From the IMG/VR virus record IMGVR_UViG_3300045988_098681: a stretch of DNA of 64,000 nt; one strand, given 5' to 3'. This document shows, piece by piece, positions 74-59,617 of the stretch. The stretch is from a virus. How positions within the stretch are numbered: position 1 is the stretch's first letter; each line of letters begins with the position of its first letter. The notes under the pieces were generated by a model, which made no database searches, was not told where the DNA came from, and was given only the letters and a program-made list of their open reading frames with translations. The translations under genes and the position numbers were made by a program.

Positions 74-2416
74 ATGAAAACAAAAATTCATTGTAAAGTC
101 GTTCGTAACGTCTTTACAGACAACGATGGTACATTCTCAATTTATGGGTGTGTGCCATCAAAAAACGATTTAGATAAAATCCACCTCAACAAGTATGGGA
201 ACTTCACACTTAAAGGCAATTTGAGTCTACTTGAAGTTGGAGAGGACTATACTGTTGAGGTAGAAGAAAAAAGTGGCTCATACGGCTATGAGTATTGGTT
301 AGTAGGCTTTCCAGAGATAGAAGATTTTGACGTATCTAACGTTAAAGAAATCACAGATGACCAAGAAGCAGAAATGCTCAAATCTTTTATGACTCTTAGC
401 CAAGCAAAATACGTTCACGAAGCCTATCCGAACTTTATTCGTTTAGTGCTTATGGGTGAACAAGACAAGATTGATTACAAAAATATTCACAATGTAGCCG
501 AAATTCGACTCAAAGGATATATTAACAAAGTCAACGAAAGGTTCAAGTATTATAAACTTCATCTTGATAATCCACAATACGAATTATCTATAGGTGATTG
601 CTGGACGCTTTGTTCAACATATTCGACCATACAAGAGTCAAACTTGGCACTTGCGACCAAGCCTTACGAGGTGCTTATTGATGTACTTGGCAGAGGCTTT
701 CAAGAAGCCGACAGAATGATATGTGAGTACGATAACAAGTGGGGAGATTCCGAAGCAAGGTGCTTATACTTGACTTGTTACTTACTTGAGTGCAATGAGG
801 AAGATGGCAACACGAGAATCAATGGAGCGCAAATCGCTAACGTAATCAATCAATACAATCCGCAACTTAACAAGCACATAGTTGAGCTAGTGGAGAAAAG
901 TGATAAGGTTTACTATGATAAACAAACTAAGGACTTATCGTTAATGAAAACATACATTAGTGAGTGCAACATAGCTCAAACGATAAAGCAAAAGACTAAG
1001 AAGCCACAGGTGTGGAACATTGATATTGAAAAGTATCGAGTAAATGAAAATATCACACTTACTGATGAACAAATGGGCATTTTAGAGCTTGTATGTAACT
1101 ATGATTTTGCAATGCTTATGGGAAATAGCGGAAGCGGGAAATCAAGTTCTGTCAAAGCCCTTATCTCGCTCCTTGAGGACAATAACAAGTCTTACACCCT
1201 TCTTGCCCCAAGCGGAATTGCAGCCAAACGCCTTCGTGAAACAACAGGTCGCGAAGCAAGCACAATTCATAGACGTATCATGTCAAGCAACGATATTGAG
1301 AGCGATGTTGTAGTTATTGATGAGGTGTCTATGGTCGATGTTCATTTGTTCTCGACTTTACTCAATCAAATTGCAAGCTATGCAAAGATTATTCTCGTGT
1401 TCGATTCCGCTCAACTTGCCTCAATTCAATGTGGCAACTTAGTGCAAGATATGATGGATTCACACGTTGTTCCATGCGCAGAACTTACTAAGGTTTTCCG
1501 CTATGGTATCGGTGGAATTGCAACCGTTGGTGCAGATGCTAGGAACGGAAGAGAATACTTAACAAGTGATGGAGAACTTAATTGTGAAAATGCCGAGAAT
1601 ATTAAAGACTACGAGTTTATAGAGGTTAATGATGAACCGCTTGAACAAGTTATGAGTGCATATGCAAAGTTAAGAGAAAAGTACGATGTAAAAGATATTC
1701 TTGTGCTTACACCATATAACAAGGGCAATTTTGGTACTTACGCAATCAACCAAGCAATTCAAGAAAAGTACAATCCTGCTGACCCTGTTGACGATGTAGT
1801 ATCAAGAAAACTTCCACCATCACTAGGAGTTCCAATGAAAACCCTTAACTATCATATTGGCGATAAGGTTATTAACAAGAAAAATAACTATCATGCACTA
1901 ACAGATGAGGGGTTTGAACATTACTTGCAAGAACAAAAGTTAAGGCTCAAGATAGATGAATATAAAGTCAAGTTTGGGGCAAATGATGAAGGTGTTTTAG
2001 ACCTTGAGGATACACTTAGAATGATGGAAGAACAAGAGCCACCCGAAGCCACAATATATAATGGTGATATTGGGTTCATTAAACACATTGACGATAAAGG
2101 TAATGTATGGGTGCAATTTGATGAAGATATGATTGTGTGTCGTAAAAGCGACCTTGAAAACTTACTCCTTGCTTATGCCTGCACTAGCCATGCGAGCCAA
2201 GGTTGTGAAGCAAAGGGAGTTATTTTCTTAACCCACCCTAGTCAAAAGCGCATGTTGTCAAGGAACTTATGTTACATGTCGCTCACAAGAGCCAAAGAAC
2301 ACTTAATCGAGATTGGTGATATTTCAACTATCAATAATGCGCTCAAAGTCAATGAAACAAGATTGCGTTACACGTGGCTCAGGGAACTTTTGGAGGAAGA
2401 TAAAGATGTTAAATGA
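74..2416 (+). CDS. RecD-like SF1 DNA helicase
   Basis: 780-aa ORF with a strong RBS. Walker A 'GNSGSGKSS', Walker B 'VVVIDEVSMVD', and C-terminal 'AYACTSHASQGCEAKGVIFL' / 'SLTRAKE' motifs typical of RecD/TraA-type helicases. Confidence 0.85.
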   Translation: MKTKIHCKVVRNVFTDNDGTFSIYGCVPSKNDLDKIHLNKYGNFTLKGNLSLLEVGEDYTVEVEEKSGSYGYEYWLVGFPEIEDFDVSNVKEITDDQEAEMLKSFMTLSQAKYVHEAYPNFIRLVLMGEQDKIDYKNIHNVAEIRLKGYINKVNERFKYYKLHLDNPQYELSIGDCWTLCSTYSTIQESNLALATKPYEVLIDVLGRGFQEADRMICEYDNKWGDSEARCLYLTCYLLECNEEDGNTRINGAQIANVINQYNPQLNKHIVELVEKSDKVYYDKQTKDLSLMKTYISECNIAQTIKQKTKKPQVWNIDIEKYRVNENITLTDEQMGILELVCNYDFAMLMGNSGSGKSSSVKALISLLEDNNKSYTLLAPSGIAAKRLRETTGREASTIHRRIMSSNDIESDVVVIDEVSMVDVHLFSTLLNQIASYAKIILVFDSAQLASIQCGNLVQDMMDSHVVPCAELTKVFRYGIGGIATVGADARNGREYLTSDGELNCENAENIKDYEFIEVNDEPLEQVMSAYAKLREKYDVKDILVLTPYNKGNFGTYAINQAIQEKYNPADPVDDVVSRKLPPSLGVPMKTLNYHIGDKVINKKNNYHALTDEGFEHYLQEQKLRLKIDEYKVKFGANDEGVLDLEDTLRMMEEQEPPEATIYNGDIGFIKHIDDKGNVWVQFDEDMIVCRKSDLENLLLAYACTSHASQGCEAKGVIFLTHPSQKRMLSRNLCYMSLTRAKEHLIEIGDISTINNALKVNETRLRYTWLRELLEEDKDVK

Positions 2417-3005
2417 TAAGCAAAGAAAGTTCATAGAGGATAACATAAAACTCGTTTACAAGTTTTGCGCTAGGTACAACATTACTGACGAGGACGATAT
2501 TAGCGACTTTGTATGCAAGTTTTGCGAGCTTGTAGAAAGTGATGCTTACGATGAAGATAGAGGTAAATTCTCTACCTTCATTTGGGCATCGCTCAACAAC
2601 TACGCTCACTATCGCTATGAGGGTCAAAATGCCCTTAAACGTAACCTTGCCGAAGGTGAAAGATTCGTCTATTTAAACAAAATGATTGCTAATGGAAAAA
2701 GCGACAAAGAGGACGAAACAGAAATACAAGAATTGGTTCAAACTCGTAATGATTACTTTGACGAGGTTGACTTAGGCATAGCGATTGAAAAAATGCGTAA
2801 GGCAGCTAGAGAACGTGATAATAGAAAAAAGTGCAAAAGGCGCATATCAAACGAAAAAATGCTCGATATTGTTCTCTACTATTACAAACACGAGAACGGC
2901 GAAATGAATATTACAGAGGTCGCTCGTGCGCTTCATACTACAAAACAGACTGTATTTAACAATTTGCAAGAATTAAGAAAGTCGGCAAAGAGGTGTTTAG
3001 AATGA
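2406..3005 (+). CDS. sigma-70 family factor (region 2 + region 4)
   Basis: Internal ATG 2406 overlaps the helicase stop. 'NIKLVYKFCARY...RGKFSTFIWASL' resembles region 2, and the C-terminal 'MLDIVLYYY...NITEVARALHTTKQTVFNNLQELRK' is an HTH resembling region 4. Confidence 0.7.
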   Translation: MLNDKQRKFIEDNIKLVYKFCARYNITDEDDISDFVCKFCELVESDAYDEDRGKFSTFIWASLNNYAHYRYEGQNALKRNLAEGERFVYLNKMIANGKSDKEDETEIQELVQTRNDYFDEVDLGIAIEKMRKAARERDNRKKCKRRISNEKMLDIVLYYYKHENGEMNITEVARALHTTKQTVFNNLQELRKSAKRCLE

Positions 3006-3547
3006 CAAGCGAACAATCAAAATTTGCAGAAGAAAATATTCGCCTCATGTATCGCTATTTCAACATGCACAACATTACAAACGAGGACGATAAAGCAGAC
3101 TTGTTTGAATACTATTGTAAAGTAATTGAATGTTACGATGATAAAAAAGGAAAATTCAGCACCCTGCTCTATTTTTCCCTTGACAGATATCGTAGACATA
3201 TTTATAATTATAAGTATAATAAGTGTAGATTTTCTGATAAGCCGAGTATATCTTTAGACTCAACTTATGATGACGAAAACGATTGGCTACAAGAGCTAGT
3301 TTGTGAAAGGGACGTTGATATTGAGTTTGTGGAGTTCTTGGATATTTGTGAGCGTGTTTATGATAAACTTGCAACTAAGAAAAATAGTTACAATCGAAAA
3401 CTCGAAGATAGAGAACTCTTTACAATGCTCTTGGCAGGCTACACGAGAAAGGAGATTGGCAATATGTATAATATCTCACAACAAGCATTGTCTGTGAGGA
3501 TTAACAAAATTAAAGCAATTTTTTATAAGGAAATGGAGGAATGTTGA
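3002..3547 (+). CDS. sigma-70 family factor, paralog of the preceding gene
   Basis: 'ENIRLMYRYFNMH...KGKFSTLLYFSL' plus 'LLAGYTRKEIGNMYNISQQALSVRINKIK'. Same architecture as 2406-3005. The start is 2993 or 3002. Confidence 0.65.
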   Translation: MTSEQSKFAEENIRLMYRYFNMHNITNEDDKADLFEYYCKVIECYDDKKGKFSTLLYFSLDRYRRHIYNYKYNKCRFSDKPSISLDSTYDDENDWLQELVCERDVDIEFVEFLDICERVYDKLATKKNSYNRKLEDRELFTMLLAGYTRKEIGNMYNISQQALSVRINKIKAIFYKEMEEC

Positions 3548-4852
3548 TGAGAGTAGAAGAATGGCTTGGCGAAGATAATAAGATTGGGTTAGATATTTGG
3601 CACAAAAAGTATCAACATGGCAATGAGACATTCGATGAATGGCTTGATAGAGTAAGTGGAGGTGATAATGACCTAAGAGAACTCATTAAAAGTAAAAAGT
3701 TCTTATTTGGTGGCAGAGTGCTTGCGAATCGAGGTGTGCCAGATAGTGGGAATTTTTATAATTGCTTTTCTGCCGGATATGTAAAAGACGATTATGCAAG
3801 TATTATGGACGTATTAAAAGAAGTTGGTATTACGTTCAAGTATCAAGGTGGTCAAGGAATCTCCATGTCGAAACTTCGTCCAAAAGGAACAAAAATTGGC
3901 GATAATTATGAGTCAGATGGTATTGTTCCTTTTATTGAAATGTTCAATTCTGTCACTAAAGGTACTTCGCAAGGCGGTGCAAGAAAAGGTGCTTTGATGA
4001 TTAGCTTAGACATCAATCACAAAGAAGCCGAAACATTCATCAAGCTAAAAACTGATCTTGACGCTGTAACAAAAGCGAATCTCTCTATGGAAATAGACGA
4101 TGAGTTTATGACTGCGGTGCAAGAGTTCTACTATGATGGGACAATAAAAACATTACATAAGAGATACAACTACAATGGGCATGTTGTGGAATATGATATT
4201 ACGCCGATTGAATTGTATAAATTGATGATGGAAGTTGTATGGGACTACGGGGAGCCGGGGTGTATCTTTGTAGACGAATTTAGGAACAACAACTTTTTAG
4301 AGCTTGATAACGAGTATCAAATAGAAACTTGCAATCCATGCGGAGAACAACCATTAAAAGCTCGTACAAGCTGCTTGCTTGGCTCATTAAACTTATACGA
4401 GTTTGTTGAAAACAAGTTTACAAGTGATGTGTATTTTAACTTTGAGGAATTTGCAAAAGCTATTAAAGTAGCCTCAAATGCACTTGATAACATCATCGAA
4501 GAAAATGCTCCAAGGCTTCCTAAAGAACTGGAGCAATACAAACAAAACGCTTATGATTGGCGTAATATGGGGCTTGGTGTATTCAACTATGCACACATGC
4601 TCATGGCTATGGGGCTTAAATACGGTAGCGAAGAAGCGTTGGCTTTTACTGATACGCTATTTTACACTATGATGATAGAAGCCATTATATCAAATGACGA
4701 AAGGGGCAAAGAAAAGGGTAATTATCCAAAGTTCAAAGGCGGGTTAGTACAAAAGTCCACGATGTTTAGAAACCATGCCCCCGAAGAACTTTTACAAAAC
4801 GGTGCGCTACATGCTAGAAATTGCACGTTGTTATCTATCGCGCCAACTGGAT
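3547..4852 (+). CDS. nrdJ: class II (B12-dependent) ribonucleotide reductase, exon 1
   Basis: GGAGGA RBS at 3535-3540. RNR active-site motif 'CNPCGEQPL'. The ORF breaks right after 'LLSIAPTG', with a stop 3 codons later. Confidence 0.8.
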
Positions 4853-5155
4853 TAACACAATAGGTTCAGTATAAACTATTTTAATTGCTGGAAACCCCTT
4901 AGAGCTACTTAAACTACAACGTAGGTATGAAATAAAACCAAGCGTGAATGTCTGAAAATTAAGTAGATTGGGCAATCAGCAGCTAAGACTCGAATAGAGT
5001 AAAGTTCAACGACTATCCCGCAAGGGAGTACACAATAAGCAAGAAATGATTGTGGAAAAGGATAGATACTATTTATAGTATAAGATATAGTCTATTCTTA
5101 TAGGAAACTATAAGCAGTTATATAACGGCAAATGTCTTGCGAACATTTGTGAATG
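4853..5155 (+). ncRNA. group I self-splicing intron (ORF-less, ~303 nt)
   Basis: R-like core 'GTTCAACGACTAT' at 4994-5006 and S-like core 'AAGATATAGTC' at 5082-5092. A 7-bp P1 pairs exon ACTGGAT (4846-4852) with GTTCAGT (4864-4870), with U.G at the splice site. The intron ends on G5155 and the exons join in frame. Confidence 0.8.
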
Positions 5156-6171
5156 TAAAAACTATTGCAACGATGGTAAATGGCGCAGGAGGGGTTGAGC
5201 CTGAGTTTGCCTTATCCTACACTCGTAGAACAGACAATTTAGATGAATCCTACAAGATTGAGTCAAACATCGTAAAAGAATATCGTATAATCACAGGCAA
5301 CACAGGCGAGCTACCAGACTATTTTGTATCAAGCGCAGACATCCATTGGAGAGACAGAGTAAAAACGCAATCTGTCATTCAAAAACATATTGATACAGCA
5401 ATTAGCTCAACTGTCAACTTACCAAAGGAAACTACCAAAGAAGAAATCGAGGAACTATACTTATACGCTTGGATTTGTGGGTTAAAAGGAATTACAATCT
5501 TTAGAGATGGGTGCAAAAGACTTGGCATTCTCACAACACAAGAAGATGAAGCTACGCAAAGTGAAAAGCCTAAATCAGAACTCACTCGTGGAACCATTCT
5601 TTCTGTTTCCGACGACTTGATTGGCGCAAAAAGAAAATTGAATACAGGCTGTGGGTCTTTGCATTTTGAGGTATATTTTGATGAAGTGACAGGCGAACCA
5701 CTTGAAACCTTTGTAAACGTAGGCTCTAGTGGTGGATGTGAGAAAAACTTACAATTCATTTCTCGACTCATCTCACTTGCCCTTAGAGCAGGTGTATCAA
5801 TCGAGGATATTATCGACCAATGCAAGTCAATTAAACCTTGCCCTGCATATGTATCTAGGACTAATAAAAAACACGATACAAGCAAGGGATCAAGTTGTCC
5901 TAGTGCCATTGGATATGCGTTAGAGGATTTGTATGACAAAATCAAAGAACGATGCTTTGCGGATTTTGATTTAGAAGATGGTTATGTTGAACCATTGACA
6001 ATCAGTTCACCTGCAATCAAAGAATCAGATAAGGTTGTAAAAACAGGTGCAGATGGTCAAATGATTATTAAAAACTCTGATTGTATATGTCCTGAATGTG
6101 GAGAACCTTTAGTATTTGAGGGTGGTTGTAACCAATGCAAGGCTTGTGGTTTGTATAGTAATTGCGATTAA
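5156..6171 (+). CDS. nrdJ: class II ribonucleotide reductase, exon 2
   Basis: Continues '..(L)KTIATMVNGAGGVEPEFALSYTRR..'. C-terminal CxxC...CxxC zinc ribbon 'CPECGEPLVFEGGCNQCKACG'. Confidence 0.8.
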
Positions 6172-36336: not shown

Positions 36337-37218
36337 CTAAATATCGTACTTCCAAATGTAGCCCTTTGCTCCAACTCCACCTTTTTTGCAACAACTATAA
36401 ATATAGCCCTTGCTAAGATTTAGTTCATTTGCTGCATCATTAGCAGTTTCGTATCTTTTGATTATAATTCCATCTAAAGATAATTGCAAAATAGGCACAT
36501 TCTTTTTGCTTTTATATCTTTTCTTTTGCAGTGGATTACCATTTTCAAATCTCCATTGATAACCGAAACAAGATTTATCTTCTAATCGGCAACATTCTGA
36601 AATTTGAGTTTTATTACAACCTAAAAAAATTGAAGCATCTGTTATTGACTTAAAAGTCCGAATAAAATTACCATCAAGGTCATATTGGCAAACACTCTTC
36701 TCTTTTGGATTTATATATGGTTTTGGTGGCTCTTCACCTTCAAATTGCCACATATATCCACCAAGAGAGTTTCTCCTATGAGAACAACAATTTGTTATGC
36801 CTCCTCTTGAAAACCCCAACTCACGTTCGGCTTCTGCCATACTGTCAAAAGTTTTAATATAATTACCATCTAAGCTATATTGACAAACTTTTTTACCCCA
36901 ACCGTTTTGACCATCTCCGCCTTTAGTCATATTATAACCACACCTAGGTTCATTAAAAGCATAACTATTATATTCCTTGATATAATATATTTCTCTTTTA
37001 TCTAGGTCTTTTGGTTGGCACTCTTCAATTATCTCAAATACAAAATTTTCAAATCCGTATTTTTGCATAGCTTTATATAATATTGTTCCTTTTGTTTTTG
37101 ATTTAAACGTTGTTTTATGTTCAATCCATCTCTTATGAATGTCTCTCGATTGCCCAATATAAACATGACCATTCATAATATTAGTAATTTTATATATGCC
37201 ACATATTTTTTTATTCAT
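36337..37218 (-). CDS. free-standing GIY-YIG homing endonuclease with three C-terminal repeats
   Basis: 'CGIYKITNIMNGHVYIGQSRDIHKRWIEHK' is the GIY-YIG motif. Three ~55-aa repeats follow ('VCQYSLDGNYIKTFDSMAEAEREL..', 'VCQYDLDGNFIRTFKSITDASIFL..', 'ILQLSLDGIIIKRYETANDAANEL..'). GGAGGAATTA RBS. Confidence 0.8.
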   Translation of the reverse strand: MNKKICGIYKITNIMNGHVYIGQSRDIHKRWIEHKTTFKSKTKGTILYKAMQKYGFENFVFEIIEECQPKDLDKREIYYIKEYNSYAFNEPRCGYNMTKGGDGQNGWGKKVCQYSLDGNYIKTFDSMAEAERELGFSRGGITNCCSHRRNSLGGYMWQFEGEEPPKPYINPKEKSVCQYDLDGNFIRTFKSITDASIFLGCNKTQISECCRLEDKSCFGYQWRFENGNPLQKKRYKSKKNVPILQLSLDGIIIKRYETANDAANELNLSKGYIYSCCKKGGVGAKGYIWKYDI

Positions 37219-37339
37219 TGTAATTCCTCCTGTCAAAAGAAATTAAACAAATAATAAAGTAATTTAAAATTTTGACAGAATTTTAAAAGGGATAGCTAGT
37301 CCTTGTCCTTTATTATTTGTTGTTTTTGTATTTTTTATT

Positions 37340-46202: not shown

Positions 46203-47432
46203 TCATAAAAAATAAATTTTTGAGTAACTCCAAAGTAATTTGCACTTTTTAGCATTCACCTTTTTACAGTGCTTTGTTGGGCTTTGAAAGTTCAATGCGT
46301 GTTGACATGGGTACAGTGCTGTCACATATCCCATATGAGTTTCCCCACTCTTATACGTATATTCAACCAAGTCCCTATGCCTTATACCCAGTACATTATC
46401 TGTCTTAGCTTTACTCTGTCTGCGCATTGGTTTTACAATCCATTCTTTAACATCACATGTATCAGGCAGTAAGCCTGTAATACAGATAGCATCATTAGAA
46501 TGTGATTTCTCAATGTTCCAATCAATACGTTTATTTGCTGTATCACCACCGTTGGTTAAGTGCAATTCGCCAAGACTAGACAATTTGTCTCTAAGCCAAT
46601 TCTTACCAATCATCACATGTTGTGCATAGTTTAGATTTTTATTGTCACTTGAACCCAATATGGAAAAGTACCAATCCATGAACTGTTCTTCTTTACCTTC
46701 TGTTTTTTGGTGACAATTCTTGCACAGTGTGATTAGATTGCCGAGTGTATTTGAACCATTTAATCTCCTTGGCTTAATGTGATGCACTTCAAGCCCACAA
46801 TCAGATTTTCCACATTCCATACATTTACAACCGTCTCTTAAGATAACTGCCCTACGTATGTTTTCGTCCAACCTGTTTGATTTTTGATACTGCCATTTGT
46901 ATGGTCTGTACCCATCAGTCAATGCTCTAATATCAATTGATACATCCTCAAGCCAATAACTTGTTATGTTTACCCATCTGTTAAGACAATTTATAACTCT
47001 AATTGTTGCTTGTCTCTTTTGCAGTATGCTTGGTGCAATTCTTCCTTTTCTTCTTGGGGAACTGCGATTGTTAAACCTTGCAGGTCTGTGCCTCTTGTGG
47101 TTTCTGTGATAACGTCTGTAACCACGCCTAACTTCCATCAAACGTTTTACATCGTTTCGCTGCTCGATTGTCCCCTTGAAAAGAACTTTGTTTTTCGTCT
47201 GGCACTTTTGAACAACAGATATCCCCACATGAAGTCCGCCATCATCAATGCCACATCGCATCTCATCCTTACAAACTTCATTGTCTAAAATTTTTTTCTT
47301 AAGCCGTATTACCATTGGATATTTACTCACAAGCACTGCACGTTTCTTGCGAATAAGAAACCATGCTTTTTGCTCTTTTGTTGGAGCCAATTGTTTTCCA
47401 TCAGCGTCTAACACAAAAGCATAATTTATCAT
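46203..47432 (-). CDS. iscB: IscB-like RNA-guided nuclease (split RuvC with HNH insertion)
   Basis: Motifs occur in IscB order: 'GKQLAPT' (PLMP-like), RuvC-I '[14 protein letters not shown]', Arg-rich helix '[22 protein letters not shown]', 'IAPSILQK', RuvC-II '[10 protein letters not shown]', HNH '[22 protein letters not shown]', RuvC-III '[10 protein letters not shown]'. Confidence 0.8.
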
Positions 47433-50239: not shown

Positions 50240-50314
50240 TGGCATACCTACTACGAATCGAACATAGATATACGGTTTTGGAGACCGCTGTTTTCCCAAT
50301 TAAACTATAGGCAC
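50240..50314 (-). tRNA. tRNA-Trp: tRNA-Trp (anticodon CCA), CCA-encoded
   Basis: Cloverleaf folded by eye: acceptor GTGCCTA/TAGGTAT, D stem GTTT/AAAC, anticodon stem GCGGT/ACCGT with loop CTCCAAA, T arm CTATG-TTCGATT-CGTAG. Confidence 0.75.
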
Positions 50315-50377
50315 ATATCAGATGAGTTAAGTTTCTCTAACTCACCAAGTACGCATCCGAAAACACATACCCCAATT

Positions 50378-50740
50378 TTAAAATAATTCTTGTTCAGTTA
50401 TTCCAATATTTTCTTCTGTATATGGTAAAAACAAATGACCAAATCTACCACGCACTTCTCCATTATCTTTTGGAAATCTTAAAAAATGTTTGTAATCTGT
50501 TAATAGCTTAGGACAATTTTTTTCTACCCACTGTTTAGTTGCAGTAATACAATAATCCGAAGACGTATCTACAAAATTAAATACTACAAATACTACACAT
50601 AATTTATTTTCTTTTACCCAATCTTCATTGTCAAATGGAATTTTTAAATTGTCTTCAAACCATGTGATAAAAGGTTCATCATCAGGAAAATCTCTTTCTA
50701 AAAACCAATTATTTAATTCAAAATAAATTATATTTTCCAT
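50378..50740 (-). CDS. hypothetical protein
   Basis: 120-aa ORF between tRNA genes. Confidence 0.5.
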   Translation of the reverse strand: MENIIYFELNNWFLERDFPDDEPFITWFEDNLKIPFDNEDWVKENKLCVVFVVFNFVDTSSDYCITATKQWVEKNCPKLLTDYKHFLRFPKDNGEVRGRFGHLFLPYTEENIGITEQELF

Positions 50741-50770
50741 TACACCGTCCTAAACTTTCTATAAATTTAA

Positions 50771-50847
50771 TGGTGATGCCACCGAGGCTCGAACTCGGAC
50801 TTTTCAGCTTGAAAGGCTGATGTGTTAACCAGTTACACTATGGCACC
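50771..50847 (-). tRNA. tRNA-Glu: tRNA-Glu (anticodon UUC), CCA-encoded
   Basis: Acceptor GGTGCCA/TGGCATC, anticodon stem TCAGC/GCTGA with loop CTTTCAA, T arm CCGAG-TTCGAGC-CTCGG. Confidence 0.8.
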
Positions 50848-50925
50848 ATACGAAGAAAGTATAATAGATAATTTCTAAAATTTGTATTAAATCCCACAAT
50901 AAGAAATTATCAAACATAAAGGGAT

Positions 50926-51002
50926 TGGCGGGACATCTAGGATTCGAACCTAGAATCTTGCGGTTAACAGCCGCCTGCTCTAACCAGCTGAGCTAATGTC
51001 CC
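50926..51002 (-). tRNA. tRNA-Asn: tRNA-Asn (anticodon GUU), CCA-encoded
   Basis: Acceptor GGGACAT/ATGTCCC, D arm GCTC-AGCTGGTTA-GAGC, anticodon loop CTGTTAA, T arm CTAGG-TTCGAAT-CCTAG. Confidence 0.85.
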
Positions 51003-51300
51003 ATATGGATGCAGGTACTCGACACTCCCCTTAGCTAAATCAAAGGATTTTAGGTGGCGATAGTTCAATAACTTATTTGCCTAACATGTGCAAACAAGTT
51101 TATTCATGCTCAGCCACCTAGAACTTTCATTAAGAAAAATTGTTGGAAACGACAGGACTCGACGTTACGTTCAACTAAAAAAAGTTGATTCCTTATTCAT
51201 CGTGCTCTGTTTTGCCGAAGCTATTCCAGTTGGTATAGCACTCCAAAGGCTTAAATTCCCATGTAGCGATTTGGTACATATATGTAGTCACTTCTAGTTG
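51003..51300 (-). ncRNA. putative TnpB omega RNA (reRNA) / transposon right-end region
   Basis: ORF-free 3' flank of tnpB. Nested stems TAGGTGGC/GCCACCTA (51051-51058/51113-51120) and CTTATTTGC/GCAAACAAG (51072-51080/51090-51098). The single non-Watson-Crick pair is A-C on the + strand and G-U on the - strand. Confidence 0.4.
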
Positions 51301-52425
51301 TTAAACTACATATTTCATTAAATTGATTGCTGCGTTGTAATCACGATCTATTACGGGACCGCATTCTGGACAGACGTAGATTCTGTCGCTGAGCTTTAGG
51401 TTTGACTTAATCGTTCCGCAACAAGAACATGTTTTGGAAGAAGGGCAGAACCGATCTACCTGTACGAACTCGATCCCATTCCACTCACACTTGTATTTCA
51501 TCTGACGAACAAACTCATAAAAGCATTGTTCCTGAATTACTTTTGACAGGTGTTTATTCTTCATCATTCCAGACACATTAAGGTTCTCCATGACGACCCG
51601 ATATGGACGCATAAATACGAGTTTATGTGTTGCTTGATGAATATGATTTTGTCTTGTCATTGAAATGTGATAGGAAAGTTCTCGAATTTGTTCTTCGACT
51701 TTAAGAATATTAGCCGTCTTTTCAAAATTACCATTTTGATAATACTTACGAGAAACTTTACGTTGAAGGCGCTTCAATTTCTTTTGCTTTTTCTTCATGT
51801 TGGAAGTTTTGTTAATGTTCTTAATGACAATATTTTCATCGCCAAAAGCTACACTACAAAGCGCTTTGATTCCAAGGTCAATACCCATGGACTTATTTGT
51901 CAGCTCCAATACTTGGTTCTCACACTCAAAGCCAACTGTTAAAATCCATTTCTTATTGACATATGATATTCTTGGATTGTAAAATTTTGCTTCTTTTCCT
52001 AGTGGGACATTGTAGTTTGTCCGATATTTTACTTTACCGAGCTTTGGAATTGTTACAGATTCTTCGGTAAAGTAAGTTCCATCGTTTCTGATTGGATAAT
52101 TAGGTTTCGATTTCTTTTTACTTTTAAATTTAGGAAAACCTGCGCCACGAAAAAAGTTTGAATATGCTTTATCAAGGTCTCTTAATGTTGTTACCAAGCT
52201 CGCATTTAAAACTTCATTAAGCCAAGCATATTGTTCTTCTTTTTTCAATGGAGTGAGTTTCTTGATAAGATCAAAAGATGATAATTTCTTGCCGATGGAA
52301 GAGTATTCCACTTTTTGAATCTCTAATCCCCAATTCCAGATAAACCTACAACACCCAATGTGTTTCCACATCAATTCTTCCTGCTCCTTAGTTGGGAGCA
52401 GTCTGATCTTGTACGTTTTCATCAT
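51301..52425 (-). CDS. tnpB: TnpB (IS200/IS605-family RuvC-like RNA-guided nuclease); no tnpA nearby
   Basis: N-terminus 'YKIRLLPTKEQEELMWKHIGCCRFIWNWGL', RuvC D 'GIDLGIKALCSVA', E 'VVMENLNVSGM', zinc finger 'CSCCG..CPECG', final 'IDRDYNAAINL'. Strong AAGGAGGT RBS. Confidence 0.85.
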   Translation of the reverse strand: MMKTYKIRLLPTKEQEELMWKHIGCCRFIWNWGLEIQKVEYSSIGKKLSSFDLIKKLTPLKKEEQYAWLNEVLNASLVTTLRDLDKAYSNFFRGAGFPKFKSKKKSKPNYPIRNDGTYFTEESVTIPKLGKVKYRTNYNVPLGKEAKFYNPRISYVNKKWILTVGFECENQVLELTNKSMGIDLGIKALCSVAFGDENIVIKNINKTSNMKKKQKKLKRLQRKVSRKYYQNGNFEKTANILKVEEQIRELSYHISMTRQNHIHQATHKLVFMRPYRVVMENLNVSGMMKNKHLSKVIQEQCFYEFVRQMKYKCEWNGIEFVQVDRFCPSSKTCSCCGTIKSNLKLSDRIYVCPECGPVIDRDYNAAINLMKYVV

Positions 52426-53530
52426 TTACCTCCTTTTCTTTAAGATTTTATGAAAAGGAGAGTGGCGGGAACTTACCCCGCACATGCGTTTCTCTCTTGT
52501 TGAATATATGAGCGAGACTTTGGGAACCGTTTTTACCTATCGACATCAGCATAGTGGTATTCAACGTTATCGAGTATGCTCCCGCCTTGCCATCTTCCAA
52601 TGACTGAAAATCTCGCAGAAATCTTAAGTTATTTTACTAAGCTAAACAACTAAATAACATGTGCCATGAACCTTCGTTCTACCTTCCACAATCATCGTCA
52701 TATTCAACCAGTAAGTAGACAAGTCTGTGCCACAGGGAGCTACCCTATGACATCTTGCCTAGATGGAAACCATCAAATCTTACAAGGGGCTCTTTCTACC
52801 CTTAACTTTCACAAAGCATTCAGAATTATTTTCTTCAAATCTTCATCATTTGACATCATTTGACTTGTAAAATTACTACAGTCATTGCTTTTTGCTACTC
52901 GTACCTTGACCCTATCTTATACTTTGTCTTTCGACAATCTCACAGCAAACTTCCTTAGTGGCACTTCCGTACTTATGCCGCTTGCCACAGCGACACAGCC
53001 CTCGGATTCGGCTTACGCTTTTAACGCTTAGCTTCTATTGTGGAAGCGATAGGACAGTGTTTTTAACAAGGATTGCTTTAGCACACACCCCCAGAACCAT
53101 TCTATTCATAAGTGGCATCTTGCATCTCACAATGCAAGCCTTTGACCGTTACCAAAGCTATCGTTTTGGCTAGGCTATTCTTACCCGCAGGTGGGTAGTG
53201 TTCTCTGCACCATGCTCTTGGTCTACACAGAGTTATGGCACACATTATTTAGTTGTCTAAAAATGGCTACGGGATTGAGTACCGCCCTCAACAATAGTCG
53301 GGTCAAAGCCGACTGCGTTCACTTGTTCGCCATCCCGCAATATTTGGTTGGTATACGATTGAAACCATATACCAACCGTAAGGAAAAAAATATGAAAAAA
53401 GCGTTTTTCTTTTTTATTGTGGCGCACCAAATAAATTTTATGGATGTCCTTTTAGGAGGTAAAACACAAAAAACAGAAAGGTTGGTTTTAGGTGCGCCAC
53501 TCGAATATTTTGTTGTTTTCTCTCTTTACA
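52426..53530 (-). ncRNA. candidate large structured non-coding RNA (class unassigned)
   Basis: ~1.1 kb downstream of a perfect consensus promoter with no ORF >=60 aa on the transcribed strand. Many stems: 53419-53428/53491-53500 (10 bp), 53346-53355/53368-53377 (10 bp), 53296-53301/53309-53314, 53119-53125/53132-53138, 52958-52963/52983-52988, and GTC-GAAA-GAC at 52926-52935 (GNRA only on the - strand). Confidence 0.35.
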
Positions 53531-53536
53531 CTTTTC

Positions 53537-53565
53537 ATTATATAGAGATGCTTGCATTTTGTCAA
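53537..53565 (-). promoter_or_regulatory. perfect consensus sigma-70-type promoter (TTGACA-17-TATAAT) on the - strand
   Basis: Reverse complement reads TTGACA (53565-53560), then 17 nt, then TATAAT (53542-53537). It lies just downstream of the stop of gene 53581-54723. Confidence 0.7.
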
Positions 53566-54723: not shown

Positions 54724-54914
54724 TAGTTCACCTGTTCCGAGATAAACGAAACTTGCATACCTTCCATATCTCTAAGCATTTCTTCAACGCTAACAACAAT
54801 CGGTTCTTCGTCTTTCTTATCATAAACCTCTACAACAAAGTCACCGTTATCATTTCTTGTTAAGTAGCCAATAACCTTGGTGGTTGTAATGCGACTATAT
54901 GTATCCTTCATCAT
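54723..54914 (-). CDS. hypothetical protein
   Basis: 63-aa ORF coupled on both sides. Confidence 0.45.
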   Translation of the reverse strand: MMKDTYSRITTTKVIGYLTRNDNGDFVVEVYDKKDEEPIVVSVEEMLRDMEGMQVSFISEQVN

Positions 54915-55285
54915 TCATCGTCCTCCTCATAATTGTCTGGTTTAAAAAGCGGGTTCCCCCATGTTTGTTCCATCATCTCACTTCTAAATTGTTGTGAAAT
55001 TAAGAATTGTGGAATATTGTGTTCAAGACGCTCACGACTCAAACTCAACTCACCATTAAGACTTACATTTGGCATATATCTTGGTTTTTTATATGGTCTG
55101 TATTTGAGCGTAAGAGTTCCAACTTTTTGCAAGCACACCTCTCTGCCCGATAATAAACATTCCCTTATCACATGAATGTAGTTTTCTATGATTTCTCTAC
55201 ATTCCTTTTGCGAATACCCAGACAATTCAGAAACTACTCGAACGATATCACCTTGTTTCATTTTAGGTACGTTGTATCCTTTCAT
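54911..55285 (-). CDS. HU/IHF-like DNA-binding protein
   Basis: 'DIVRVVSELSGYSQKECREIIENYIHVIRECLLSGREVCLQKVGTLTLKYR' follows the HU helix-helix-beta-arm pattern. Confidence 0.5.
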   Translation of the reverse strand: MKGYNVPKMKQGDIVRVVSELSGYSQKECREIIENYIHVIRECLLSGREVCLQKVGTLTLKYRPYKKPRYMPNVSLNGELSLSRERLEHNIPQFLISQQFRSEMMEQTWGNPLFKPDNYEEDDE

Positions 55286-55511
55286 TTCTAATCCTTTTAA
55301 TCCTTTCTAATCCATACCCCACGCTGAAATAACAACGTGGGGCTTTATGCAATTCCCATACTTGTATGGCGCATTGGGTAATAGCGCACCCCTACTTGGG
55401 CAAACTGCCCTTTCCAAGATATTCTATCATATAGTAACTTATGATAAAAATTGAACAAACGTTGAAATTTCAACATTCTTAATCTTGTATGTTTTCCCAT
55501 AATTTCACATT

Positions 55512-56117
55512 TTATGTGGTTTTTTGAAAAATTTTGAGCAAATTACTAGGGTTTATTGTATATAAAGTTTTCAATAAAAGCACTTTATTCTTATCTGTTT
55601 TGGCTTTAGACTTCCTGCCATTTCCATCTAAATTTACCCTTAAATGAAAAGCTCTATCTATAAGCCAACTAAACAATCCAAGATAATCTTTTGATATATA
55701 TACTCGTTTAATATCTTCTACCATATTCTCAAAATCTTCTCGTAATATTAAATCGTCCTCAATATCATCAATCGCATTTTGGTATAACCTCAATCCATAA
55801 GCCTCTATAAACGCCTCAACTTTTTTAGATTTTCGTCTGTCCTCTTTGAGTTGGTGATGGTTGTAAAAATAACACATCGGCAAAGTTGACTCATTTGAAC
55901 GTATTTTAGGTGGTTTATAGTCAAAAAGTACATTCATAGGACATTGGAGCTTGTTGTTAATTTTATCTTTTGGTATGGCATAGTTTACATAAAGCCAAAA
56001 GCGTGGATATCCATTATGTTTTACATTAAGTTCTTGTTTTATGCGCCGTATTTCTGAGTTTAGGTCGATATCGTAAGTGCGCTTTGCATTGTCGATAGCA
56101 GCCTGCATTTGTTTTAT
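55512..56117 (-). CDS. YonO/RdRP-like polymerase candidate, exon 2 (junction approximate)
   Basis: The frame is open upstream of ATG 56108. An in-frame join '..ILSVVA|IKQMQAAIDN..' is possible. Confidence 0.45.
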   Translation of the reverse strand: MKQMQAAIDNAKRTYDIDLNSEIRRIKQELNVKHNGYPRFWLYVNYAIPKDKINNKLQCPMNVLFDYKPPKIRSNESTLPMCYFYNHHQLKEDRRKSKKVEAFIEAYGLRLYQNAIDDIEDDLILREDFENMVEDIKRVYISKDYLGLFSWLIDRAFHLRVNLDGNGRKSKAKTDKNKVLLLKTLYTINPSNLLKIFQKTT

Positions 56118-56381
56118 CTCTGGCTCTTTATCCAGAGCTTCTTTAAGTTTCCTTAAAGTATCGGACTATATCTTCACCATGCACTTTCGTGTTTAGGTGT
56201 TCAGCACTCGTGGGGGGATTATTGCTAGTTCTGCTCACCCCCTAGTCTCTGAGCCTTCCTATCTACTAAATGAACCTCGATAGGTTTGGCATATGGTTAG
56301 CATATGCTTTTGCACTTAGCTTTCCACTATTCACTGAATATTTTTTACTAAATGTTTCCACTTAGCTGACCCATTTTACTA
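56118..56381 (-). ncRNA. group I self-splicing intron (ORF-less, ~264 nt; boundaries approximate)
   Basis: On the - strand: an R-like 'GGCTCAGAGACTAG' (56242-56255), an S-like 'AAGATATAGTCC' (56163-56174), then a CTTTAAG-GAAA-CTTAAAG hairpin (P9-like) and a GCTCT..AGAGC hairpin before the proposed 3' splice site. Confidence 0.7.
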
Positions 56382-58337
56382 AGCCACTACACTCAGAATA
56401 CACACATAATCATCATACTCTTTGTCTGTAAAACTATATCCATAAGTCAACGCAAGCTGCGCAAGATTACTAGACTCACCTATTGCCATTTGTGCTTTGG
56501 CAAGGTTGTTGTCTATAACGGCGTGATTGTACATGGATAAGTCATAATGATTTTTTTCTTTTGGAATGTTGTTTACAATGGTTGGATGGTTTATGTAGCA
56601 ATATTTGGCGTAGTCGGCAATGTCATGTTGATTTGTTACAAATACTTGGTCAGAATCCCAGTCGCAGCCATTTAGTCGGTCTTGGACATCTGTGTGTTTG
56701 CAATTCATTGCAATACATTGCTCCCCAATATAAAAATATTTATCTAAAATATCGCTCTTAATATTTTTAAGTCCAATAATATTCGACTTACTATTGTGCG
56801 GGCTTCTAAATCCTGCTAAATACTCGTTTGCTCCAAACCTCTTTGTGTAACATTGAATACAATCCTGCTCTTGACCAAACGTATTGTCTTTTTCTACATC
56901 TTCACCCACACTATGTAATAACATGGCATAAGGAGAGCCAACCATTACTAAGTTATCACCCTCTTGCAACACTTTACCAAACTTTAGATTTTTTACATAA
57001 CCATCAATTATTTTTTTCTTCCTGCTCCTAAAATACTCACTTCGCACAAATTCTGAATCCTGCTCGCACAATGCGACCAAAACCTCGTAGTCATTAGAAA
57101 AGTTCTCATTGTCTCTAAGGTAGTCAAGGAACACATCATTGTCACTCTTTAGTTGTTCAACATACGATTTGCTTCTTGCAAGCACACCATCCATAATTTC
57201 AACATCAAGTGTGTTTATCATTTGGTAACTCATACGTTGAACGTCACCGTATTTGCTCTTGTGTGCAGTTTTAACTATTCCAAATTGACAATCATTCTCA
57301 TGGACTTTCTTACACCAATAGTCATACGATACGTCGAATTTTAACCACTTCATGGAATTATCTGTGGTTATCATCTTGATATCTTTTACATAGTGTTCAT
57401 TGCCCCACATATCGACAACTTTTGCACTTTTGTACTCATCGCCATACCAATCCCTAAAGAACCGTTGTATGTTCGTGTGAAAAGCAGCACACTTTGTCAT
57501 ATGATGTCTTAGTAATACATACCCCTCTCCCCACTTGGGAAAAATCGAATCGTCTATCAAGGCTTGCCCATCGAACAAGGTGTTTTTTAATTCGTAGTCT
57601 TGTATTCGCTTTGCATAACAATGTTTTTTTCCATCAATGCCAATACTCACTACTTCACGCCTAAAAAAACTATCCACATCTTTTAGTATCAATATATTTT
57701 CCGGCTCAATCCTCATGCGTCCAACTATCGTGCTTGCGATGAGTGACACATATGCACTTGCTTCTACTATCGGCGCATTATGCTTTGGAATCTTTAACCC
57801 CATATAAATAAAGTCGTGGGCTTTTTTATAGAGCCTAGAACAAATAAACATAACAGAACCTTGCTTCGCCTTGCCAGCAGAACGATAAAGCATTTTATAG
57901 TGTATTGTTTCTGTTTTCTTTATATTTCCTGCTTTGTCTTTGGTATGATATTTAATATTTATTCCATGTTCGTAATATTCAATTCGTATATCTTCTTTTC
58001 GCTTCTTGACGTACTTATCTCTATTTTCGTCTACTTTATTTAGTAAAAATTCTAATCTCTTTATTTTCTCCTCATCGTCAATTTCTTTTATCTTATTTAC
58101 AATGTTGCCCCTCGTGTCCTCATAACTCTTAGCTCCCATGTCAAAATTCAAGCATATTACATCTCTAGTGAAACCGTTCTTCGACACTTTAAGTCCATTT
58201 TCTAACAAGAAGTCTAAGAAGAGGCTATTTGTCAACATGGCATTAGTATATGGCAGATAATCTCTTGCGCCAAGATTATATTCATATAGTTGTCCTGCCG
58301 AAAAGTTCTTTATTCGTACACCATATTTATTCGTCAT
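56382..58337 (-). CDS. YonO/RdRP-like two-barrel RNA polymerase candidate, exon 1
   Basis: 'GFRSPHNSKSN...(~40 aa)...LNGCDWDSDQVFV' matches the 'RSP.H...GGD.DGD' spacing of the catalytic double-psi beta-barrel in QDE-1/YonO-type polymerases. The ATG at 58337 is preferred over the GTG at 58349. Confidence 0.5.
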
Positions 58338-58338
58338 T

Positions 58339-58509
58339 TTACCACTCACCCCATTGAAATCTTACACACTCATTATAATTAAAGTATCTATATAAAAAAT
58401 CATATTCTTGTTCTTTGTATTCTCTATTTAATCGTTCCTTTTGTGATAAAATGGGATAAACATGGTGACTCATTTCTTCCCAATAATCTTCTTTATCCCT
58501 ATACTCCAT
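58339..58509 (-). CDS. small hypothetical protein (56 aa; below the track cutoff)
   Basis: GGAGGAG RBS and ATG 58509. Stop overlaps the start of the next gene (TAAAATG). Confidence 0.4.
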   Translation of the reverse strand: MEYRDKEDYWEEMSHHVYPILSQKERLNREYKEQEYDFLYRYFNYNECVRFQWGEW

Positions 58510-58550: not shown

Positions 58551-58579
58551 AGTATAAAGATTCTACCACAAAATGTCAA
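58551..58579 (-). promoter_or_regulatory. sigma-70-type promoter (TTGACA-17-TATACT) on the - strand
   Basis: Reverse complement reads TTGACA (58579-58574), then 17 nt, then TATACT (58556-58551). Divergent from the + promoter 11 nt away. Confidence 0.65.
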
Positions 58580-58589
58580 TAGAATTTGC

Positions 58590-58618
58590 TTGACTTTTAA
58601 CATAACTTATTGTATAAT
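58590..58618 (+). promoter_or_regulatory. sigma-70-type promoter (TTGACT-17-TATAAT)
   Basis: TTGACT 58590-58595, 17-nt spacer, TATAAT 58613-58618, then an AGAGG RBS and ATG 58637. Confidence 0.65.
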
Positions 58619-58636
58619 AAACCAAGAGGTGTTAAA

Positions 58637-59617
58637 ATGAAAGAATTTGAGTTAAAAGAAAAGATAAAAAACCTTGAACGAAAATTGGAACAATATGAGT
58701 TAGAATCGATTGGAATCTATGCGCCAAAACATGCGCTCAATACAAGATCTGAATTTGGAGAGGCAATTAGACAAAACCTAAAAGAACAACGCGAGTGCAG
58801 CAAAGTTAAAAATTTGTTCACCACAACAGGCACAATTCAAAGTATCCTTGTGCAAAACTTTAACTTTGAGTGTTCTGAAATCATAAGAAAGCTCAACGGC
58901 TACAACTTGCAAAGCGCAAAGTTAAAAATTCAAGAAAAAGCGAATAATATGCTAGATGTATGTGACGAATATGGCATTTTAGTGAGCAATCACAATTTAT
59001 TCAACCTCAAAATTGAACAAGCCGAACTTGAAAACGACTACTTGTTATTCCAAGCAGAAGAAAGATATAGAAAGCAAGAACAAGCTCGCAAAATAGCCGA
59101 ACAACGCAAAGCCGACAAAGAATGGTTCGATAGGTTGGTGGAATTAGAGAAAAGAATCCAAGAAAGTATATCTAATGGCGATATTGAGGAAACTGAACGA
59201 TTGCAAGAAGAAGCCAATCAAACACGCCATTTACTCAAAGAAAAGAAAGCAGGTTGGGTATATATCATCAGCAACGAAGATATGCACAATGGATACTATA
59301 AAGTTGGAACAACGCGAAGAATCTCGCCCCTTGTAAGAATAGACGAACTTTCAGACGCAAGCCATGCTTTCAAGTTTAGGATTCATGCGCTCATATATTC
59401 TGAAGATTGTTTTGACTTAGAATCAAGATTGCACAGAAGATTGACAAACTATCGAGTAAACAAAGAAAATCTACATAAAGAATTCTTTGAAATTGACCTT
59501 GAAGAATTACAAATTATCTTGCTTGATGAATTTGGTATTGATGTAGAAATGAATGAAAATATTTACGAGGACGATGAAAAACTCAATGCGCTCTACTCAT
59601 TTATTTACGATAAATAG
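58637..59617 (+). CDS. DUF4041-like coiled-coil + T5orf172 (GIY-YIG superfamily) domain protein
   Basis: C-terminal 'GWVYIISNEDMHNGYYKVGTTRRISPLVRIDEL...ESRLHRRLTNYRVNKENLHKEFFEI' matches the T5orf172/MUG113 pattern. Long N-terminal coiled coil. Confidence 0.7.
   Translation: MKEFELKEKIKNLERKLEQYELESIGIYAPKHALNTRSEFGEAIRQNLKEQRECSKVKNLFTTTGTIQSILVQNFNFECSEIIRKLNGYNLQSAKLKIQEKANNMLDVCDEYGILVSNHNLFNLKIEQAELENDYLLFQAEERYRKQEQARKIAEQRKADKEWFDRLVELEKRIQESISNGDIEETERLQEEANQTRHLLKEKKAGWVYIISNEDMHNGYYKVGTTRRISPLVRIDELSDASHAFKFRIHALIYSEDCFDLESRLHRRLTNYRVNKENLHKEFFEIDLEELQIILLDEFGIDVEMNENIYEDDEKLNALYSFIYDK

Follow-up and report, generated by a model that had tools for sequence, protein, structure and literature searches.

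The locus considered here raises the question of whether a gene broken into two open reading frames (ORFs) still specifies an RNA polymerase and, if so, of which kind and for which genes. It occupies positions 55512-58337 on the minus strand of IMG/VR virus record IMGVR_UViG_3300045988_098681, of which a stretch of 64,000 nucleotides (nt), hereafter the window, was analyzed. A preliminary description had proposed that it encodes a single-subunit RNA polymerase with two catalytic barrels, related to YonO of phage SPbeta and to the RNA-dependent RNA polymerase (RdRP) QDE-1. We consider it probable, on sequence comparison, that the locus encodes a YonO-family single-subunit two-barrel polymerase of a ~100-kb human-gut Clostridia phage, and that this intron-split gene is expressed early by the host for DNA-dependent transcription of the late genes. 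The enzyme is real but of an already known kind, as YonO homologues have been known in Firmicute phages since 2003-2010 and the function of YonO since 2017. The additions made here are modest: the size of the gut-phage family, its group I introns, and a very stable pairing with an HU-like gene.

The gene appears in the ORF listing as two minus-strand frames of 656 amino acids (aa; 58349..56379) and 198 aa (56108..55512), lying ~270 nt apart. Its start codon, an ATG at 58337..58335, and the stop codon ending at 55512 match the coordinates first assigned to it. Both ORFs match successive parts of phrog_8308, an 847-position profile of "unknown function" (the first at 115-615, the second at 641-809), and are therefore two pieces of one gene. 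The gap between them is a complete group I intron, matching the Rfam model RF00028 over its full length with 77.2 bits (expectation value, E, 7e-18), above the gathering score of 50. Among 5.8 billion proteins searched there were many homologues of 849 aa without interruption, at 91-98% identity, and others that stop at exactly the same point, at 651-652 aa, ending in LSVVA. Alignment to intron-less 849-aa homologues (98% identity) sets the protein junction at ...CILSVVA/QAAIDNAKR..., with LSV[IV]A/QAAIDNAKR found among those homologues. The splice sites accordingly read ...GGCU/UAG...AAUG/CAG..., with U as the last base of exon 1 and G as the last base of the intron. A P1 pairing of UGGCU with the internal guide GGGUCA can be read from the sequence, placing the U before the 5' splice site opposite a guide G, and the intron is presumably self-splicing. 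Two other 3' boundaries were considered and rejected. Splicing at G 56118 (...VVA-IKQM-QAA, 853 aa) would leave four extra residues that are missing from the intron-less homologues, and we place the site after G 56106; the end of the Rfam model at 56141 falls short of a hairpin (CUCUGG...CCAGAG) and ~12 further nt that also belong to the intron. The same intron is found in the polymerase gene of a 99.6-kb IMG/VR contig, a copy 99% identical to that of the window.

Excision rejoins the frame and yields the sequence of the intron-less homologues: a product of 849 aa and 99.3 kDa, identical at 840 of 849 positions to an uninterrupted homologue, P0002. The preliminary description had expected a spliced length of ~850 aa, similar to the size of YonO, and both expectations hold, YonO being of ~100 kDa. 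A broken frame with stop codons after exon 1 might otherwise signal a decaying pseudogene whose motifs are relics. We give that explanation almost no credence, since what breaks the frame is an entire group I intron, canonical at its boundaries, whose removal restores the homologues' sequence exactly. In addition, all invariant residues are intact, identity to the uninterrupted homologue is close to complete, and other intact relatives have introns at the same site.

The active-site residues point to the kind of enzyme. In an alignment of 50 homologues with identities down to 27%, only 22 columns are invariant, and these include D256-G257, R277, K282, R511, P513, D559, D561 and D563. Eight residues are common to all two-barrel RNA polymerases, namely the barrel aspartate, two basic residues, an R-x-P motif and a DxDxD triad, represented in Qde1 by D709, R738, K743, R962, P964 and D1007/1009/1011 (Ruprich-Robert and Thuriaux, PMC2919709). 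All eight are present in the window protein and invariant in its family (Table 1), and the spacing of five between R and K in the basic pair is that of Qde1. The two motifs originally quoted for this protein, GFRSPHNSKSN and NGCDWDSDQVFV, are found as quoted at aa 509-519 and 556-567 (the latter at 56672..56637, minus strand). They lie 47 aa apart from start to start, and R511 and D559 are separated by 48 aa, compared with 45 aa between R-x-P and DxDxD in Qde1. Because R511, P513 and the three aspartates are invariant across the 50 homologues, the motifs lie far beyond chance; conservation of the triad had been put forward as a check on the original proposal. YonO-like proteins and RdRPs are without the fifth carboxylate, equivalent to Rpb2-E836, beside the beta-barrel aspartate (PMC2919709). 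It is likewise missing here, where F255 precedes D256, as it is in YonO, which has T, and in QDE-1.

Profile comparison ties the family to YonO directly. With hhalign, authentic SPbeta YonO (AAC13036.1) and the family profile align over 515 columns at 99.1% probability (E 4.6e-19), and the motif pairs (YonO first) all fall in register: TDG/FDG, RlpwvK/RHHMTK, RSPH/RSPH, DnDgD/DWDSD and IDfAK/IDNAK. The profile also matches a 924-aa homologue from Spbetavirus BUCT082 at 99.7% probability. We considered this protein as a YonO orthologue and rejected it, as it is only ~25% identical to the real YonO; the family is therefore deep. A tblastn search of phage genomes matched BUCT082, Clostridium phage c-st, whose record already says YonO homologue, and proteins of Enterocloster phage PMBT24 and Thomasclavelia phages that bear the name "RNA-dependent RNA polymerase".

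An AlphaFold2 model built from the 50-sequence alignment has a mean predicted local distance difference test score of 91.3 and a predicted template modelling score of 0.88, and its strand-rich blocks at ~aa 206-288 and 456-568 carry the catalytic motifs. Foldseek returned 20 matches in the PDB at E <= 0.001, and every one is a two-barrel polymerase (RDR2, QDE-1 or phage gp64). The best is RDR2 of maize and Arabidopsis (E 7e-14, template modelling (TM) score 0.54), QDE-1 matches at E 3e-12 to 1e-9, and the overall fold similarity to these two enzymes spans E 7e-14 to 1e-9 and TM 0.44-0.55. The RNA polymerase gp64 of phage P32 is matched at E 7e-6; weaker matches to bacterial beta' and short local Rpb1 barrels follow, and an RlpA-like double-psi beta-barrel protein is matched locally. 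Among the viral models of BFVD, phage "RdRP" proteins score best (TM 0.75), followed by a protein of phage 0305phi8-36, which has been cited as carrying a YonO-like gene (PMC2919709), and by gp64 of P23-45 (E 6e-6). The predicted fold supports the presence of two double-psi beta-barrels, whose absence would have spoken against the original assignment. As for the fold relatives named in the preliminary description, QDE-1 is recovered with confidence, while crAss-type polymerases give only a weak match (E 0.02, probability 0.6). The YonO profile match, the eight residues and the fold matches together place the protein among the single-subunit two-barrel RNA polymerases of the YonO/QDE-1 branch.

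Several results weigh against the reading proposed here. Neither exon contains a Pfam domain past threshold, PDB sequence searches with the single protein and with the 50-sequence profile found nothing relevant, and identity to YonO is only ~19%, a distance over which specificity need not be conserved. Moreover, the nearest solved structures are RNA-dependent enzymes. The protein might instead copy RNA in the manner of QDE-1 and RDR2, for example making antisense or double-stranded RNA during infection, as might be supposed from the best structural matches and from the "RNA dependent RNA polymerase" names of close and distant homologues. Three of the 50 relatives match the RdRP family PF05183 (best E 2.3e-9), which neither exon matches at E <= 1 and nor does the uninterrupted, 98%-identical P0002. 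These names trace to the Pfam family label, not to experiments, and with no YonO chain found in the PDB sequence and fold searches the eukaryotic RdRPs are nearest by default. To our knowledge, YonO is the only characterized bacterial or phage member of the RdRP-like two-barrel branch. It strongly prefers DNA templates (PMC5467207), and QDE-1, too, has DNA-dependent activity (PMC9508822). A position at the head of the late-gene array of a double-stranded DNA phage also fits DNA transcription. We therefore regard an RNA-copying role as improbable and a DNA-dependent polymerase for late genes as the most likely function, a role proposed because of YonO and the order of the genes.

That order is best seen across the whole window. 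Plus-strand genes at 1-9.6 kb serve replication and nucleotide metabolism, and between 62.7 and 9.7 kb nearly all genes lie on the minus strand with very short gaps, in the order polymerase, HU-like protein, metallophosphatase, ROOL RNA, TnpB, tRNAs, peptidase, large terminase, portal and tape-measure protein. Related cultured phages infect Enterocloster and Thomasclavelia. An HU-like ORF lies on the same strand within 6 kb downstream of the polymerase gene in 64 of 80 IMG/VR loci, never upstream or on the opposite strand, and such a gene is found downstream of the polymerase in SPbeta, BUCT082, PMBT24, TR-TP1, Perkons and c-st as well. A metallophosphatase gene follows the polymerase and HU genes in 60 related loci; it does so likewise in Thomasclavelia phage TR-TP1, where it is gp6, annotated "exonuclease". 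SPbeta has the order yonP, yonO, yonN (the HU homologue), a non-coding RNA and then the late operon from yonK, and the succession of polymerase, HU-like gene and terminase or late genes recurs in Thomasclavelia TR-TP1 and Psychrobacillus Perkons. A host-type promoter had been reported ahead of the gene, and a promoter-like site does exist there (58579..58551, minus strand), followed after ~40 nt by a 56-aa ORF whose end adjoins the polymerase start. The site is identified by an 11/12 consensus match, and over the whole region such sites are in no excess, with 23 found compared with 27.8 expected from shuffled sequence. The 56-aa ORF was considered as a YonP equivalent or conserved cofactor and rejected, as it has no similarity to YonP and occurs at only three related loci.

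YonO itself offers the model for function. It is a strictly DNA-dependent, highly processive, single-chain polymerase of ~100 kDa, and its aspartate triad is essential, the 3D>3N mutant being inactive (Forrest et al. 2017, PMC5467207). It transcribes the SPbeta late operon and is needed for 37 structural and lysis genes (PMC5467207). By analogy, host RNA polymerase would express the window gene early from the sigma-70-type site, the intron would splice out to give the 849-aa, 99-kDa protein, and the spliced enzyme would act as a rifampicin-insensitive DNA-dependent RNA polymerase, independent of the host enzyme. It would then read the co-directional minus-strand array of HU-like gene, metallophosphatase, ROOL RNA and tRNAs, terminase, portal and tail genes, which would be the equivalent of YonO acting on the SPbeta late operon. 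The conserved HU-like neighbor would probably help on the DNA template. A bolder version, which we put forward only tentatively and think more apt to be wrong than right, is that the HU-like protein is a dedicated partner of YonO-type polymerases that bends or untwists promoter DNA or marks the phage template, thereby enabling initiation. This idea is suggested by the retention of the polymerase-HU pairing from SPbeta (yonO-yonN) to gut clostridial phages at ~19% polymerase identity.

The remaining difficulties for the late-gene proposal concern its targets. At least one sigma-like gene could steer late transcription by way of the host enzyme. The preliminary description had listed two sigma factors. 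One of them, the ORF at 2993..3547 (plus strand), matches a PHROG family of "RNA polymerase sigma factor" (E 1.7e-7); the other, at 2313..3005 (plus strand), has only sub-threshold matches to Sigma70_r2 (E 0.009) and to a C-terminal helix-turn-helix, so that a pair is plausible but weakly supported. The two ORFs overlap in tandem after a RecD-like helicase gene. Furthermore, a search of 16 intergenic regions for a phage-polymerase promoter motif, taken as an 11-mer with at most one mismatch in at least four regions, returned no motif, one A/T-rich word being the only hit. The window protein could then be an active DNA-dependent two-barrel polymerase with another task, for instance transcribing middle genes or the cluster of ROOL RNA and tRNAs, or primer or R-loop synthesis, with late genes left to a sigma-redirected host polymerase. 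Besides the one or two sigma-like ORFs at 2313..3547 and the lack of a polymerase-specific motif upstream of late genes, it would fit this picture that PMBT24 combines a SigK-like sigma factor with a YonO-type polymerase and that relatives repeatedly have a ROOL RNA shortly after the polymerase gene. We nevertheless see in it a small chance, if a larger one than that of an RNA-copying enzyme: the SPbeta genes that depend on YonO are precisely those for structure and lysis (PMC5467207), the order of polymerase, HU-like gene and terminase is kept across very distant phages, and ROOL has a perfect sigma-70-type promoter of its own. Late-gene transcription from DNA thus remains the preferred role.

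Table 1. Coordinates of the polymerase gene, its motifs and its neighbors in the window; residue numbers are those of the spliced protein.
Feature	Position	Strand	Evidence or remark
Exon 1 of the polymerase gene (aa 1-652; beta-like and beta'-like barrels)	56382..58337	-	ORF, sequence; start ATG as in 849-aa homologues
Group I intron, 276 nt, no internal ORF	56106..56381	-	Rfam RF00028; boundaries from intron-less homologues
Exon 2 (aa 653-849 and stop codon)	55512..56105	-	Same PHROG family as exon 1; continues homologues from QAAIDNAKR
F255-D256-G257, metal-binding aspartate of beta-like barrel (= Qde1 D709, Rpb2 D837); preceded by F, not E	57567..57575	-	D256, G257 invariant; YonO TDG
R277-HHMT-K282, basic pair of beta-like barrel (= Qde1 R738/K743)	57492..57509	-	Invariant; YonO RlpwvK
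GFRSPHNSKSN, aa 509-519, R511-x-P513 of beta'-like barrel (= Qde1 R962/P964, Rpb1 R446/P448)	56781..56813	-	R511, P513 invariant; YonO RSPH
D559-W-D561-S-D563, catalytic aspartate triad	56649..56663	-	Invariant; YonO DnDgD
QAAIDNAKR, family-invariant D657/K660 motif directly after the intron site	56079..56105	-	YonO IDfAK; long model helix 640-657
Sigma-70-type promoter-like site TTGACA-17-TATACT	58551..58579	-	11/12 consensus match only
56-aa ORF abutting the polymerase start	58339..58509	-	ORF listing; only 3 related loci
HU/IHF-like DNA-binding protein gene (= SPbeta yonN)	54911..55285	-	PF00216, E 9.5e-9
Metallophosphatase-family gene, 380 aa, extra N-terminal ~130 aa	53581..54723	-	PF12850, E 2.8e-8

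Set against known enzymes, the window protein stands closest to YonO. The two share ~515 homologous columns, the eight active-site residues, the IDxAK motif and a similar length (849 aa compared with 839 aa), and both are encoded by phage genes followed on the same strand by an HU-like gene (yonN in SPbeta) and then by late genes. They differ in their N- and C-terminal regions, which do not align, in the group I intron, which only the window gene has, and in the small upstream ORF, which is unrelated to yonP. The window phage also has sigma-like genes and a host from a gut clostridial lineage, where that of SPbeta is Bacillus. QDE-1 and RDR2 (PDB 2j7n, 5fsw, 7w82, 7rqs) share the bipartite two-barrel catalytic core and are the best structural matches (E 1e-10 to 7e-14, TM ~0.5), but sequence identity is 10-12% and the window protein does not match PF05183; they work in RNA silencing on RNA or single-stranded DNA, whereas the expected template here is double-stranded phage DNA. 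The non-virion RNA polymerase gp64 of phages P23-45 and P32 (PDB 8f72) is another two-barrel enzyme that a phage encodes as one chain, and its fold match is significant, but it is much smaller (~600 aa), is of Thermus phage origin, superposes at TM 0.3-0.4 and has no relation detected at the sequence level. Similarly, gp66 of the crAss-like phage phi14:2 has the two-barrel fold of the RdRP-like branch, but it forms one domain within a huge protein packaged in the virion; the window gene is stand-alone and non-structural. With its weak fold match and a gene that lies upstream of the structural genes, behind a host-type promoter, the window protein falls outside this virion-packaged class.

Polymerase genes of this family carry further insertions. 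In relatives (loci L003, which is MT837385.1, L005, L068 and L075-L083, L079 among them), insertions cluster at two hot spots: one between aa 652 and 653, just before the invariant IDxAK motif, with lengths of 276-1220 nt, and the other at aa 557-562, inside or beside the DxDxD triad, with lengths of 281-1139 nt. The long insertions contain ORFs with GIY-YIG-like N-termini, the short DxDxD-site insertion of L078 is a group I intron by Rfam (93 bits), and both sites are occupied in MT837385.1. Many homologues in databases stop at aa ~557 or ~333, a hint of additional split positions. In Clostridium phage c-st (5980-9913) the YonO homologue is annotated as two genes, CST179 (N-terminal) and CST177 (C-terminal), on either side of the 355-aa ORF CST178, so that interruption of YonO-type genes is older than the lineage of the window phage and extends beyond it. 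Mobile group I introns of phages form a class that includes the introns of T4 td and nrdB and of the SPO1 DNA polymerase gene. The intron described here resembles them in being short and adjoining a coding motif that is highly conserved in an essential enzyme, with longer versions in relatives that carry GIY-YIG-like ORFs, and it differs in that the host gene is a YonO-type RNA polymerase. In the literature searched we found no description of introns in the YonO-type polymerase gene family, although the c-st record does note a split YonO homologue. As these introns adjoin catalytic motifs, they provide an independent marker of the most constrained parts of the protein.

The window contains other elements of this sort. 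A second group I intron (4817-5114, plus strand, 73.5 bits) interrupts the large subunit of ribonucleotide reductase, whose two ORFs (3541..4863 and 5137..6171) match PF02867 at positions 8-390 and 391-522, respectively. There are also three free-standing homing-endonuclease-like genes: a GIY-YIG and NUMOD1 (I-TevI-like) gene at 36337-37236 (minus strand), an RRXRR and HNH gene at 46203-47432 (minus strand), and a T5orf172/MUG113 gene at 58610-59617 (plus strand), the last divergent from the polymerase operon and provided with a TTGACT-17-TATAAT site.

The region downstream of the polymerase gene has further features. The 226-nt spacer between its stop and the HU start (55286-55511) contains a hairpin, CCCCACG-N11-CGTGGGG, at ~55310-55345 on the minus strand, which lacks a T run, together with a doubtful ORF of 51 aa seen only in near-identical relatives; SPbeta likewise has an annotated stem-loop right after yonO. 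A full-length ROOL RNA (RF03087, 269.5 bits) occupies 52649-53256 on the minus strand, between the metallophosphatase gene and the tRNA and late genes, and a perfect TTGACA-17-TATAAT site lies ~280 nt upstream of it (53565..53537, minus strand). In at least nine related loci, ROOL-like RNA follows the polymerase gene on its strand, in four of them starting ~250 nt past the polymerase stop. The SPbeta non-coding RNA upstream of yonK was considered as a ROOL RNA and rejected, Rfam finding only a DUF3800-VIII RNA there. Next comes a TnpB/IS605 OrfB-type gene (51301-52425, minus strand; Pfam OrfB_IS605 and Cas12f1-like TNB), then a RAGATH-18 RNA (51189-51249, minus strand), and beside them three tRNA genes (50243-51002), so that a mobile-element nuclease with its RNA sits inside the phage.

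The family as a whole has gone largely unrecognized by name, being either unnamed (PHROG 8308) or called "RNA-dependent RNA polymerase" in NCBI and UniRef. An exhaustive scan of representatives of clusters at 50% identity, with a threshold of E <= 1e-3, puts the family at 1285 clusters or more; many of these come from ~100-kb phages of human-gut Clostridia, and YonO-type enzymes are not a curiosity of Bacillus. Correct naming would alter how the transcription programs of gut phages are read, which on sequence grounds may combine promoters for the host polymerase, sigma-like factors and a rifampicin-insensitive polymerase of the phage's own. The work of 2017 left promoter recognition by YonO unresolved (PMC5467207). 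The initiation factor still missing for YonO-type enzymes has a concrete candidate in the HU-like neighbor and, if the partnership is true, this would answer the question of how YonO finds its promoter.

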